Shown: in pieces, positions 32,484-53,587 of the stretch | How positions within the stretch are numbered: position 1 is the first letter of the stretch | How the letters are laid out: each line of letters opens with the position of its first letter | Origin: a virus | IMG/VR virus record: IMGVR_UViG_3300014208_001418 | Direction: 5' to 3' (one strand) | Length of the DNA: 64,000 nucleotides | Made by a program: the position numbers and the translations under genes | Notes under the pieces: model-generated | What the model was told of the DNA's origin: nothing | The model's database searches: none | What the model saw: only the letters and a program-made list of their open reading frames with translations

Positions 32484-34151
32484 ATGTCATACCCCGAATC
32501 CCCTGATCCCTTAACAGGAAAAGCACCTGTACATCAAGCAACAGCTTTAGAGAACGCTAAGCTCGCTTTAGTTCAAATGGGAAAAACAACTATACGCCCA
32601 TCCTCCACAAAGCTCGCAGATAAATACGAGATCATCGTCACAAAACTAGCATCTCCAATAACCTTCGAATATCTTCGCAAATCCTATACAGTTTCAGACG
32701 GATATCTTATCTCTCACACATCTCCCAAGCACTTCCATAAGATCCTAAAAGACATAAAATCAATTCCACAAGCTAAATATGTTTCCAACCTAAAAAATTG
32801 GTATATCCCCACCTCCTCTCTTCCCGAACTCTTATCCTTCATGTCAAAATACGCAATCGAATCTCTAGAAATAACTGAAATACCCCCACTCTCATCGGGT
32901 CTAGGAGAATTAACTATAGAAAATATCAATATCTCTAATGTTAGAAATGCTATACGTGACTTAGGATATGATGCATTTGATCATTCAAAAACAAAAACGA
33001 TTCCCGACTATTTAAAAACAATAGAACAAGTAATTAGGAACAAAATCTCATCAGGATATACAATACCTAGTTCTACTTCTGAACATACTATTGTTGCAGA
33101 TCACATTAAAACATTATACGCTGAAATATTGCAAGAAAAAAACCATAATACTTCCTTTCATTTATTTCGTGTAGGCGATAAAGTAGAAGCTTATTTCGAT
33201 GCTACACATCACATCCCCGCAGTTATAAACTTCGTGGGTAGTGATGAAATAAAAGTAACTCTTAGCGAAGGCTTAGTACATCCTAATGGAAGAAATTTTG
33301 AGCCTAAAGAACGAATTTCTTTCGATTATCCTTTTGTAAATGACGAAAAGATAGTTCTCATAGATTCATCTTCATCTTCTCAAAATTCTCAATCATATGC
33401 TTCTCCCGAAGTTCTTTCACGACCTCTGAGCGAGAGAATCTATGAAAATCTAACAGATACTTCCTCTGACGACAAAGAACTTACAGACGAAGAATTAACG
33501 ACCTACACAACGAAAATGTTTTCAAGTCCCAACCTCAAAAACTCAATACTCAACACTATCAAGAGCTTAGGAACACAATGGGAAGATACATTCAGACCTT
33601 CTATAGCAGGAACAGTAGGAAGAATACCATCGTCAACGACCCACCCATCTAAAAAACTCAGCAATCGAAATCTCCAGAATTTCATAAAAGAAATCGAAGA
33701 CAAGTACATAGCTGAATCAAAAGCAAAGGGTGAAAAACAAGTAGATCAAAACGAGATCGTAAAAATGATCAAGCAAATTCTAAAACTTGTTTATCCTGAC
33801 ACCAAGTTCTCTGTTCGAGGCTCTCGATATTCAATGGGGCACTCAATAGATGTCCGTTACGATTTAGGCCCAACATCAAAAGAGGTTAATGCCTTAGTCG
33901 GAAAATATCATGACAAGTCGTTTGACGGGATGAATGATAGTACTTCTTATTTAAACACTCCATGGAACACTGATAGCGTCAGCGTCAGTAGAAATATTCC
34001 TGATGACAAAAGATTTCAAGTGGCAAATAAAATTTTATTAGAGAACGAGTTATCAAAAACTGTTTCGACATGGTCAGAAATGAATGTAAAAGTAAACGAC
34101 AAATGGTTACAAGATATAGTAAATGAATACTTTAGTGAAACGAGCTTTTAA
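32484..34151 (+). CDS. Polyvalent-type protein with C-terminal LPD29-like domain
   Basis: IKQILKLVYPDTKFSVRGSRYSMGHSIDVRY...FDGMND; N-terminal KYVSNLKNWYIP (HARP-like). Confidence 0.65.
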   Translation: MSYPESPDPLTGKAPVHQATALENAKLALVQMGKTTIRPSSTKLADKYEIIVTKLASPITFEYLRKSYTVSDGYLISHTSPKHFHKILKDIKSIPQAKYVSNLKNWYIPTSSLPELLSFMSKYAIESLEITEIPPLSSGLGELTIENINISNVRNAIRDLGYDAFDHSKTKTIPDYLKTIEQVIRNKISSGYTIPSSTSEHTIVADHIKTLYAEILQEKNHNTSFHLFRVGDKVEAYFDATHHIPAVINFVGSDEIKVTLSEGLVHPNGRNFEPKERISFDYPFVNDEKIVLIDSSSSSQNSQSYASPEVLSRPLSERIYENLTDTSSDDKELTDEELTTYTTKMFSSPNLKNSILNTIKSLGTQWEDTFRPSIAGTVGRIPSSTTHPSKKLSNRNLQNFIKEIEDKYIAESKAKGEKQVDQNEIVKMIKQILKLVYPDTKFSVRGSRYSMGHSIDVRYDLGPTSKEVNALVGKYHDKSFDGMNDSTSYLNTPWNTDSVSVSRNIPDDKRFQVANKILLENELSKTVSTWSEMNVKVNDKWLQDIVNEYFSETSF

Positions 34152-34874
34152 ATGGTTAGGAATGAATTATTTTTTAATGAAATTGATAATGAATTCAAAG
34201 CTTACTGGCTAGGATTTATTTATGGAGATGGATGTATTTACCAAATTTACGATAAAGTTTATGGTAAATTAAATACAGGATCTCTTAATATAATGTTAAG
34301 TAAAAAAGATGAAAATCATCTTAAAAAATTTTCTGACATTTTCAGTACAACTCTATATTCTAATGAAAAAAGGAATGAATGCAGAGTTAGTATATGTAAT
34401 AAAAATATTTTTTATGACTTAAAAGATTTGGGAATGCCAGAAAGAGATATGAAAGTAATAATAAAAAAAGTGCCAGAAAAATTAATGAATCATTTTATCA
34501 GAGGATTATTTGACGCAGACGGGAGCGTTTATCTTAGAAAACGAATAAAAGGAACATCATTGGGAATAGGGATAGACATAGTATTCTCTAATATGGAGAT
34601 AGCTATTGATATTCAAAACATTTTATGTAAAAATACCTCTTTAAGTAAAACAAAGATATATGAATATAAAAAACAAAACTGTTTTAGACTCACGTATGGC
34701 GGAAGTGAAATGCCTTTATTTTTTGCTAATTAGATATACAAAGATTCTCATATTGTTCTTGAAAGAAAATATAACATCTTCAAAGATTATTACCTTAATC
34801 TATTAAATGAACCTACAACAGGAATAGCATATGAGGACTATATTGGTTTTCCAGATTTAGATTTGTTTGCGTAG
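34152..34874 (+). pseudogene. Double-motif LAGLIDADG homing endonuclease with one in-frame TAG (34731-34733)
   Basis: KAYWLGFIYGDGCI, FIRGLFDADGSV; same frame continues IYKDSHIVLERKY...DLDLFA. Confidence 0.8.
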
Positions 34875-34878
34875 CATA

Positions 34879-34941
34879 AAAATCCAAGATAAATGGTTGC
34901 AAGATTTGTTAAATGAATACTTTGAAGTCACATCTTTGTAA
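34879..34941 (+). repeat. Displaced duplicate of the LPD29-gene 3' end
   Basis: KIQDKWLQDLLNEYFEVTSL* versus KVNDKWLQDIVNEYFSETSF* at 34089-34151. Confidence 0.85.
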
Positions 34942-34990: not shown

Positions 34991-35019
34991 TTTATATACT
35001 TAGTCGTAGTAGTAGCAGT
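34991..35019 (+). promoter_or_regulatory. TATA + AGT-motif promoter, leaderless
   Basis: TTTATATACT, GTAGTAGTAGCA 35006-35017, ATG 35020. Confidence 0.8.
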
Positions 35020-35592
35020 ATGTTTGAAAACCTAAAAAACACAACGATCATAACTATTGAAGGGAAAGACGGAAGCGGGAAGACAACCGTGGCAAAAATC
35101 CTAGCAGAAAAACTAAACGCCGAACTTATCAGCTTTCCAAAATATAATTCCCTAGCAGGTTCACGAATAAAACAAATTCTCACAAAGCAAATCCCTTTCC
35201 CGGGAGAACTTGAATTTCAATCACTTCAGCTTGCAGACAAAATAGAAGCATATAGAATACTAAATAACTATACTAAAATTCCTGAAACCATTGTCAATTG
35301 CCGATATTACGAGTCATCTTACGTTTATGCTAAAGCAAATGAAGGAGTTCCTCTTCAGTACCTTGTGAACATAAATTCAGTCCTACCTCAAAGCACACTC
35401 TCATTCGTTCTTAGCGGAAAGAACTACGGTAAAAACTCTGATTTCTACGAAACTGATCCAATGCAGAAAAAAGTATCATACCTCTATTTATCCTACGCTA
35501 AAAAATTCAAGTGGAACATCATAAACAATGAACAGCCTATCGAATCAGTAGTAAACGAGATCATAAGTAAAATTCATGCATACAACAACTAA
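35020..35592 (+). CDS. tmk: Thymidylate kinase
   Basis: IEGKDGSGKTT, ISFPKY, CRYYESSYVY. Confidence 0.8.
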   Translation: MFENLKNTTIITIEGKDGSGKTTVAKILAEKLNAELISFPKYNSLAGSRIKQILTKQIPFPGELEFQSLQLADKIEAYRILNNYTKIPETIVNCRYYESSYVYAKANEGVPLQYLVNINSVLPQSTLSFVLSGKNYGKNSDFYETDPMQKKVSYLYLSYAKKFKWNIINNEQPIESVVNEIISKIHAYNN

Positions 35593-47028: not shown

Positions 47029-47646
47029 TCATAGTCTACTCTCTTGTTTCTTATAACATGTTCCACATTCCCAATTTTCAGGAATATTTACTTTAGCATT
47101 AACATTTCCAAACGACGGAGCATTTTCGCATCCACAAGCTCTGATAGTTCCATCAGGTCTGACTATTAAATCCTCGCAGATACAACCATCTCTTCCATCT
47201 TTACATCTTCCTACTTTTATTTCTTTGTCTGTTACATCTCTGATTTCTCTTCCATCAGGACTATCGTCACAAAATTGATGTTGAGGTTTTGTAAAAGCAT
47301 CTATAACACTTATATCTATAGGACCATGATATCTATCTTGACTTAGCGCAACTCCCAGCACTCCTTTTTTTGCCATTTTTGCCAGAGTCAAAGCTATTTC
47401 GGTCTGACTTCCGTTTGTTGCCATCCACACATAATCGCTATTTCCTATAGCTTCAAAAAGCATCTGAGTGAACAATGGATGAATTGTGGGTTCTCCTCCG
47501 CCAATTGTAACTGATTCGTTATTATATTTAAGAGCATTTCTAAAAGTCTCAATTGTCATGTCTTCGCCCTTATCAGTACAGTTCATACCACAATGTGAAC
47601 AATGCATATTACAACGATCTGTTATTTGAATGTACATAATTAGCAC
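47029..47646 (-). CDS. Radical SAM protein
   Basis: ITDRCNMHCSHC, GGGEPT, ATNG, C-terminal VRPDG-CGC. Confidence 0.8.
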   Translation of the reverse strand: MLIMYIQITDRCNMHCSHCGMNCTDKGEDMTIETFRNALKYNNESVTIGGGEPTIHPLFTQMLFEAIGNSDYVWMATNGSQTEIALTLAKMAKKGVLGVALSQDRYHGPIDISVIDAFTKPQHQFCDDSPDGREIRDVTDKEIKVGRCKDGRDGCICEDLIVRPDGTIRACGCENAPSFGNVNAKVNIPENWECGTCYKKQESRL

Positions 47647-52003: not shown

Positions 52004-52032
52004 TTTTTATAGTATAAAGTAGTAGTAGCAGT
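52004..52032 (+). promoter_or_regulatory. TATA + AGTAGTAGTAGCA promoter, leaderless
   Basis: TTTTTATAGT, exact 13-mer 52018-52030, ATG 52033. Confidence 0.8.
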
Positions 52033-52737
52033 ATGAAAAGAAAATCTAATCGTATAGTGTCAATTTTATCGGGAGGGATGGACAGCACTACGCTAACTTA
52101 TGATTTAGCATTGTCTGGAAATGAAGTTTTTGCTATCAGCTTTAATTACCAGCAAAAACATGTTCGAGAACTTGAATGTGCTAAGGCAACATGTAAAAAA
52201 CTTAATATTCCTCATAAGATAGTAGATATAAGCTCTATCAGCTCCATTCTCCAGGGAAGCTCATTGACATCTCCTGATATTCCAACTCCTCATGGAAAAT
52301 ACGATGAAGAGAACATGAAACAAACAGTCGTTCCTAATCGTAATATGATTATGATCAGCTTAGCTACTGCTTATGCTATCAGCATAGGAGCAACTGAAGT
52401 TTATTATGGAGCCCATGCTGGAGACCACGCTGTGTACATGGATTGTCGACCTGAATTCGTAAGCAAACTCCAAGAAGTAATCAAAATATGTGACTGGAAT
52501 AAAGTAGAACTCAAAGCTCCATATCTTAATCTTGACAAAGGAGATATCGCAATTATAGGTAAGATGCTTCACGTAGACTATGAAAACACGACTAGCTGTT
52601 ATGAAGGCAAAGAAACCCCTTGTTTAAAGTGTGGAAGTTGTGATGAACGTATAGGAGCATTTATAAAAGCAGATATGAGAGATCCTATAATAGATGAATA
52701 TAATTGGAGCAGAATATTAAAAGAGAAAGTACTATGA
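52033..52737 (+). CDS. queC: 7-cyano-7-deazaguanine synthase
   Basis: LSGGMDST, VPNRNMI, DCRPEF, SCY...CLKCGSC. Confidence 0.92.
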   Translation: MKRKSNRIVSILSGGMDSTTLTYDLALSGNEVFAISFNYQQKHVRELECAKATCKKLNIPHKIVDISSISSILQGSSLTSPDIPTPHGKYDEENMKQTVVPNRNMIMISLATAYAISIGATEVYYGAHAGDHAVYMDCRPEFVSKLQEVIKICDWNKVELKAPYLNLDKGDIAIIGKMLHVDYENTTSCYEGKETPCLKCGSCDERIGAFIKADMRDPIIDEYNWSRILKEKVL

Positions 52738-53393
52738 ATTGTATTCATTGCAATAAACCATTAAACCGCGGCAGTAAATTTTGTAGTCAAAAATGTTATC
52801 AAGATTTTAAAAAAGCAATTTTTGATTTGAAGTACACAAAGCGATGCACAATTTGTGGAAAAGATTTTAGATGTCCCTCAACTGCGCCAAGAAAAAAAAC
52901 ATGTAGCATTGAATGTAAAAGAATTTTAAACACACAAAAAACATGGAAGGAAGAAACAAATAAAAAACGTGCTGAAACTTTGATAGCCTTTTATAGCACT
53001 CATGAAAAGAAGGGATATAAGCTCAGTGAAAAAAGCAAGTTAAAAATAAGAGAATCTTGTAAAGGTATAAATAAAGGCAGTAAAAACGGGAATTGGAGAG
53101 ATGGAGCATCTAAGAATATATTTAGAGGAGACGATTAGAAATATATCAGAAAAGAAATTTATAAACGGGATAATTACACATGTCAAATATGCGGAAAACG
53201 AAATTGTTTAATTTATGCCCATCATAAAGTTCCATGGAGAATTGAAAAGAATAATAATAGTGATAATCTTATTACATTGTGTAGAAGTTGTCATACTAAG
53301 GAAGATAATAAAATTATAAATGCCGAAAAGACTGAGGCTTTTAAAAAAGCAGAGATGAATGATTCATTGATAAGTCATAAGGAGATTCTATGA
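52704..53393 (+). pseudogene. HNH homing endonuclease (zinc-finger/NUMOD-like N-terminus) with one in-frame TAG (53136-53138)
   Basis: Same frame continues KYIRKEIYKRDNYTCQICG...HHKVPW...NLITLCRSCH. Confidence 0.8.
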
Positions 53394-53587
53394 CGCAAAC
53401 AAAATGGGAATACAAAATAATTGACGGTACATTTAATACTCGTGTAAGTCCTGAAACAGTCTCTATTTCTGACATAGAGAAAAATCTCAATGACCTGGGG
53501 AAAGAAGGATGGGAAGCTTATGCCACAACATCAACAGACACGGGTTACAGCAATGAAATATACTTAAAGAGGAAGATTAGTGCTTAA
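53390..53587 (+). CDS. DUF4177-like small protein
   Basis: KWEYKII...LNDLGKEGWE. Confidence 0.75.
   Translation: MTQTKWEYKIIDGTFNTRVSPETVSISDIEKNLNDLGKEGWEAYATTSTDTGYSNEIYLKRKISA

Follow-up and report, generated by a model that had tools for sequence, protein, structure and literature searches.

In the virus-like element analysed here, the 3' end of queC was found in two versions, one completing the queC gene itself and the other forming the last codons of a downstream gene for an HNH nuclease. On the evidence of its sequence we consider it likely that the locus is an end-replacement homing element, composed of a replacement queC end (called here tail A) and the HNH gene, with the old end of queC (tail B) displaced downstream. 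The window, as we use the word, is the whole stretch of DNA analysed, 64,000 nucleotides of IMG/VR virus record IMGVR_UViG_3300014208_001418.

Organization of the queC locus

The arrangement of the locus is given below.

52019–52035, plus strand: promoter/start signature found across the element, its last triplet being the queC ATG (17-mer recurrence)
52033–52737, plus strand: queC (7-cyano-7-deazaguanine synthase), intact, 234 aa (Pfam PF06508, E 8e-62)
52645–52737, plus strand: tail A, 3' end of the working queC gene, which probably came in along with the HNH gene (QueC-tail profile, GC3)
52734–53135, plus strand: 5' piece of the HNH gene, 134 codons, with two zinc-ribbon modules and a NUMOD3-like motif
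53136–53138, plus strand: in-frame TAG at a conserved Trp codon (homologue alignment)
53139–53330, plus strand: 3' piece of the HNH gene, with the catalytic HNH domain at 53181–53309 (PF01844, E 1e-8)
53331–53393, possibly from 53325, plus strand: tail B, a queC 3' end, putatively displaced, that continues the HNH gene in frame (QueC-tail profile)
53390–53587, plus strand: DUF4177 gene, with its ATG overlapping the stop of tail B (ATGA) (PF13783, E 2e-6)

The host gene is complete and the nuclease gene follows it immediately, as in the yeast WHO elements and the mitochondrial mORF gene hybrids discussed below. The queC product matched PF06508 over its full length (model positions 2–209 of 210) and has the PP-loop motif and the four zinc cysteines of QueC. 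In an alignment of 12 sequences, comprising queC and its 11 closest homologues, all invariant columns were kept, the four cysteines included. The closest QueC homologues are 69–73% identical to the window protein, and some of them are encoded on contigs of 43–184 kb. The ATG of queC closes a 17-mer signature of the element's own, which indicates that the 5' end of the gene is resident DNA: the 17-mer has an exact second copy at 35006–35022, and with up to two mismatches it occurs at seven sites in the window, versus 0.01 expected. The signature, which is (GTA)n-rich, has a TATA-like stretch in front of it and finishes with the ATG of genes that look leaderless. The minus strand encodes, 4.4 kb upstream of queC (47029–47646), a 205-aa radical SAM protein (PF04055, E 3e-10) that may be QueE of the same deazaguanine pathway.

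The HNH frame (52734–53393, plus strand) starts on the stop of queC, with the two genes overlapping in ATGA at 52734–52737, and runs to a TGA at 53391–53393. Its read-through product of 219 residues matched phrog_1271 (HNH endonuclease; E 5e-23) in one stretch, from residue 2 to residue 203, across the internal stop, and the part following the TAG (53139–53390) scored 35.6 bits against PF01844 (cutoff 21.4). The catalytic His, Asn and His and two CxxC zinc pairs are present in the translation, and they align with PDB 5h0m (residues 120–190). For the 5' piece, Pfam gave a hint of a DUF2116 treble clef, and homologues of the protein contain NUMOD3 (PF07460) and zf-FCS domains. The closest homologue (P0003) is 60% identical to the window HNH protein; the best matches in the phage database, obtained by tblastn, were in haloarchaeal viruses, and some of the PHROG matches are HNH proteins annotated with terminase. 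The second ATGA overlap, between the stop of tail B and the DUF4177 gene, is taken to be the original junction between queC and the next gene.

A second QueC end in the HNH frame

We built an HMM of the QueC tail, defined as the region after CxxCxxC, from 119 QueC homologues, with the window's own protein left out, and searched it against the 3,096 six-frame fragments of the window. The real queC tail ranked first (E 8e-6) and the C-terminal fragment of the HNH frame second (E 7e-4, 16.8 bits), the latter being the only non-queC match in the window, with the third-ranked fragment at an E-value of 1.6. As a background we used 51,981 six-frame fragments of 146 other loci (1.19 Mb), in which the highest non-QueC score was 10.3 bits. 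The original prediction, that an HNH gene had been inserted at the 3' end of queC and fused in frame to the displaced queC tail, was thereby supported by the tail profile.

Tail B constitutes the last 21–23 codons of the HNH frame (53325/53331–53393); with 590 nt between them, it and the real queC tail share a strand, and its frame is readable. It was aligned from position 5 of the tail model, and this alignment starts at 53334. The identity of 8 of 16 aligned residues between tails A and B, noted at the outset, was confirmed from the translations together with the quoted peptides and their coordinates; the queC peptide quoted after the third zinc cysteine is correct but is followed by 14 further residues, and the HNH-end peptide quoted for 53325–53393 by six more residues and the TGA. 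In comparison with individual QueC tails, tail B was identical at no more than 11 of 16 residues. It is altered at two (near-)invariant QueC residues, an Arg (present in 116 of 116 sequences) and a Pro (111 of 116), which fits a copy no longer under QueC selection.

At the DNA level the likeness of the tails was not significant: the tail pair is the best local alignment between queC and the HNH gene (19 of 22 nt), yet a score at least as high came from 38 of 500 shuffles of the codons. By a hand count tails A and B are about 69% identical over 48 nt, i.e. they diverge at about 31% of positions, and both end in one common 7-nt stretch containing the ATGA overlap. When the tail peptides alone were scanned against Pfam, no match was obtained even for the true queC tail, such peptides being too short; a word-based database search with the last 40 residues of the HNH frame gave no candidates, and a back-translated tail pattern found no match in IMG/VR.

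Free HNH homologues carrying the same tail would have spoken against a displaced queC end, and none were seen in the three collections searched. None of 20 HNH homologues scored with the tail profile, and none of the 21 IMG/VR HNH loci that formed part of the 51,981-fragment background contained a QueC tail. In 159 phage records compared by tblastn with the HNH protein the tail was likewise absent, most of the matches ending at query residues 187–199, before the tail. By the profile and these comparisons, tail B is a genuine QueC tail without a counterpart in the HNH family, and it provides the host-gene 3' fragment downstream of the nuclease that is seen in WHO- and mORF-type loci.

Position of the join and the candidate target

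It had been proposed that the nearly identical CxSC codons of the two genes reflect a nuclease aimed at the zinc-binding motif of queC. The likeness itself is real, as the 15-nt stretches at 52630–52644 (queC) and 53280–53294 (HNH) match at 13 of 15 positions. It is, however, uninformative on targeting, since the motif in the nuclease is the CxxCH of the HNH fold and is shared by HNH homologues, three of which (P0003, P0010 and P0022) also have in common about 12 residues following this zinc motif. P0010 and P0022 have eight identical residues from the CxxCH motif onward; P0003 and P0022 also have the subsequent helix in common, as far as about 53330, and P0003 ends six residues past this point. 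We therefore rejected microhomology at the CxSC codons as the join, because the homologues keep HNH sequence about 12 codons beyond it.

With HNH-type sequence reaching about 53330 and the QueC profile alignment starting at 53334, the join could be placed at 53325–53333. The equivalent queC codons, 205–208, follow the last zinc cysteine by two to five codons. Considering where the join and the start of tail B lie, the zinc motif of queC may still be part of the nuclease target, and we kept it as a possible target because it is the most conserved DNA near the join.

Origin of the two ends

The block formed by tail A and the HNH gene has a GC content of 29.7%, at the 5th percentile of 700-nt windows, and the queC body and the DUF4177 gene have 37% each. 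The GC3 of tail A, counted from the CxSC codons (52630–52737), is 4/36 versus 0.30 in the body of queC (binomial P 0.008) and is close to that of the HNH gene; the GC3 of tail B is 0.29, like that of the native genes. Identity to the tails of the nearest relatives did not separate native from imported, as neither tail A nor tail B is closer to them. We favour the reading in which tail A arrived with the nuclease and tail B is the old end, a reading that rests on 36 codons.

The presence of an HNH gene at queC is sporadic: among 82 other queC loci, at 41–62% identity, none had an HNH gene directly downstream and none had a second copy of the tail. A close relative or an empty site was looked for in several collections. 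INPHARED, searched with DNA and protein, held nothing above 62% identity, and neither did IMG/VR when searched with queC, two QueC homologues (P0025 and P0026), P0003, the HNH protein and the DUF4177 protein. In the metagenome scan only queC relatives of 41–62% were found among the matches listed, and the genome scan also gave none above 62%. The genes neighbouring the window queC had no homologues in the queC loci examined. As a separate observation, a 329-aa protein of NUMOD3-like repeats is encoded in one metagenome locus (L049:1426–2415), 450 nt downstream of queC. It may be another mobile nuclease near this gene, but lacks an HNH domain and does not adjoin queC.

The QueC homologues themselves pointed towards an exchange of ends. 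In P0026, P0027, P0028 and P0143 the first 176 residues are 97–100% identical and the last 45 only 68–76% (Fisher P 2e-6 and 1e-7), and the end of P0028 resembles that of P0025 (39 of 45 residues) despite different bodies. These protein sequences suggest that queC ends were exchanged between lineages in the group of P0025–P0029 and P0143, and such mosaic 3' ends are what the end-replacement model predicts. P0027 has, in addition, a short swapped patch around residues 125–135.

The most serious alternative is a local duplication, to which we give a small but not negligible probability. Here insertion of the HNH gene would have been accompanied by a tandem duplication of the queC end already present, reaching from codon 205 or so to the overlap of stop and ATG; the copies would then have diverged in place, and only the HNH gene would be foreign. 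Such an origin would agree with the ending of both tails in the common 7-nt ATGA stretch and with the finding that neither is closer to the nearest relatives' tails, and the same alternative was left open for some mitochondrial gene hybrids (PMC3630166). It is harder to reconcile with the composition of the tails, since GC3 is low in tail A as in the HNH gene while tail B is like the native genes. A divergence of 50% in protein and about 31% in DNA would also need a long residence, whereas the HNH gene has a single disabling change, and the mosaic 3' ends of the relatives point to end exchange between lineages. As few codons enter the GC3 test and the relatives' tails do not discriminate, we retain local duplication as a rival of end replacement.

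An in-frame TAG in the nuclease gene

The HNH reading frame is interrupted by a single TAG at 53136–53138, in a column where the homologues P0003, P0004 and P0013 as well as PDB 5h0m have a Trp. The protein P0144, from a second, independent assembly (58.9-kb contig), ends at the position of the TAG too, and this identical truncation shows that the TAG is no assembly slip. We considered recoding of TAG and rejected it, given that TAG terminates 13 of the 70 long ORFs of the window and that dropping it as a stop opens less extra frame than dropping either of the other two. The window uses the standard code, in which TAG is an ordinary stop. The original prediction had treated the HNH protein as read through; with an ordinary stop at a conserved Trp the gene is most simply a pseudogene, and a TGG-to-TAG transition is its simplest history. 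Judging by this one change, the pseudogene is probably recent and the nuclease inactive.

These findings bear on a functional reading of the fusion, in which the HNH protein would be a partner in the deazaguanine pathway or a packaging nuclease and the QueC-like tail would act as a docking peptide. The gene does lie inside the queC operon, with translational coupling on both sides, and some of its PHROG matches are annotated with terminase. We nevertheless hold this reading to be very improbable: the stop at the conserved Trp interrupts the gene, the combination of zinc ribbons, NUMOD3-like motif and HNH is the architecture of a homing nuclease, no other queC locus among the 82 has such a partner, and two (near-)invariant QueC residues are gone from tail B. 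The least credible explanation, that a charged, helical C-terminal extension of the HNH protein looks QueC-like by chance, could draw on the shortness of the peptide, its richness in K, E and A and the lack of significance at the DNA level, but is largely refuted by a score of 16.8 bits against a background maximum of 10.3 in 51,981 fragments, by the position of this sole match of the window right beside queC and by the closest HNH homologue stopping about six residues past the join.

Proposed model of end-replacement homing

In the end-replacement model that we prefer, a free-standing HNH homing gene would have inserted itself at the 3' end of queC and brought a substitute end, tail A; this end would keep the QueC enzyme whole and would presumably escape cutting by the nuclease. 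Tail B, the original end, would have been pushed downstream and joined in frame to the HNH gene, about six codons before the point where the closest homologue ends. The start of the HNH gene would in this way be coupled to the new queC stop, and as tail B is fused in frame, the nuclease would borrow the native stop and leave the ATGA coupling to the DUF4177 gene untouched.

When the element meets an HNH-free relative, in a co-infection or a cross, cleavage of queC by the nuclease would be expected around codons 205–208. The body of queC would then serve as the left repair arm, and tail B with the downstream gene as the right one, and tail A and the HNH gene would be copied across. The first entry probably involved homologous pairing in queC and an illegitimate right-hand join at the break (one-sided repair), which would explain the point at which tail B starts as well as the loss of the nuclease's own last codons. 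That the join is in frame may be due to selection or to an accident with odds of one in three. The later TGG-to-TAG nonsense change would fit the usual decay of a homing gene after its spread. The mobility of the unit, its cut site, the resistance of tail A to cleavage and the foreign origin of this tail are what we infer here.

Comparison with known homing systems

The closest parallel is provided by the WHO elements at the aldolase gene FBA1 of Torulaspora and Lachancea yeasts (Coughlan et al. 2020, PMC7282813). They also consist of a resistant replacement 3' end and an endonuclease gene, with the old 3' fragment downstream as the right homology arm, and the host gene is kept whole without splicing. 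FBA1 alleles under WHO homing are 99% identical upstream and 85% identical downstream of the cut, with discordant trees (PMC7282813); a similar pattern, of near-identical 5' and divergent 3' parts, is seen in the protein sequences of the closest QueC relatives. In contrast to the queC site, the WHO nucleases are intein-like LAGLIDADG/zinc-finger enzymes that work in the eukaryotic nucleus and in meiosis, whereas here an HNH enzyme resides in a virus-like element of prokaryotes. WHO genes are clustered and the queC site holds a single element; furthermore, at queC the reading frame of the nuclease continues into the displaced fragment, and here cleavage is putative. WHO elements have been called a category distinct from introns and inteins, with no prokaryotic case named (preprint 10.64898/2026.08.13.744650).

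The mORF gene hybrids of Allomyces macrogynus (atp6) and Glomus (atp6, atp9, cox2 and nad3) have the same order of an inserted C-terminal, an endonuclease ORF and the native C-terminal (Beaudet et al. 2013, PMC3630166). Their pairs of ends are 64–81% identical at the DNA level (PMC3630166), to be compared with about 69% over 48 nt for the queC tails. They differ in that their nucleases are of the LAGLIDADG or GIY-YIG type and often share the reading phase of the upstream gene, while the HNH gene at queC has its start on the stop of the gene before it and shares the phase of the remnant downstream. The queC-site nuclease, being an HNH enzyme, has no homology to the WHO/HO or to the LAGLIDADG and GIY-YIG enzymes of the mORFs, and we therefore regard the queC element as a functional analogue of these systems and not as a member of either family.

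As regards the nuclease, the nearest counterparts are the free-standing HNH homing endonucleases of phages, such as mobA-E of T4 and mobE of Aeh1 (reviewed in PMC2988022). They share with the queC-site gene the HNH domain and modular DNA-binding parts, a sporadic distribution and a location beside or within a conserved gene. Homing genes of this type spread by double-strand-break repair with co-conversion of the flanks, and one-sided repair opens new sites for them; in phage T4, illegitimate repair of this one-sided kind has been documented at microhomology (PMC2988022). The reviewed cases, however, are intergenic or split the host gene into two proteins, and a duplicated, replaced gene end is not described among them (PMC2988022). 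The principle of end replacement is thus known from the WHO elements and mORFs, and what is new here is the nuclease family, the host gene and the setting.

Implications for queC and for annotation

Should the model hold, a selfish nuclease would have settled inside the operon of an essential pathway at almost no cost, owing to the spare end, the borrowed stop and the preservation of both couplings. A mode of homing described in yeast and mitochondria would be extended to an HNH enzyme and to a virus-like element of prokaryotes, with queC codons of about 200–210 as the candidate target. For annotation, it follows that a homing nuclease can carry a fossil of its target as a short extension at the C-terminus, and that mosaic queC 3' ends in metagenomes may record past homing.

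A LAGLIDADG insertion in the same window

The original prediction had likened the queC site to a LAGLIDADG case, and the same layout with a different nuclease family could indeed be read in the window. The LAGLIDADG insertion is at 34152–34874, with an intact gene end upstream of it and a diverged copy of this end downstream. The last 17–18 codons of the 555-aa upstream gene (34098–34151) recur at about 34887–34940, after the LAGLIDADG gene and in another frame. The two sites share the duplicated-end layout and a single TAG at a Trp position. They differ in that the displaced tail of the LAGLIDADG site stands after the nuclease stop, in another frame and unfused, and in that both the nuclease family and the target gene are different.

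It is possible, although we would not count on it, that end-replacement homing is a general strategy that recurs in virus-like elements of prokaryotes, with several unrelated nuclease families employing it in a single genome. If so, related elements would repeatedly have swapped the 3' end of queC among themselves, and the mosaic QueC relatives would be accounted for.

Only two TAGs of the window lie plausibly inside a real gene, flanked on either side by a long frame: one in the HNH gene (53136–53138) and one in the LAGLIDADG gene (34731–34733). Both fall at Trp positions and in the context ATTAGA. Under random nonsense changes, the joint chance of TGG-to-TAG in both nucleases is about 0.0005–0.005. 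The shared pattern may stem from a mutational hotspot, from a shared editing process or from a suppressible switch. More speculatively, the TAG in place of Trp might, in both nucleases, be a suppressible switch that limits their expression, as opposed to two independent accidents.
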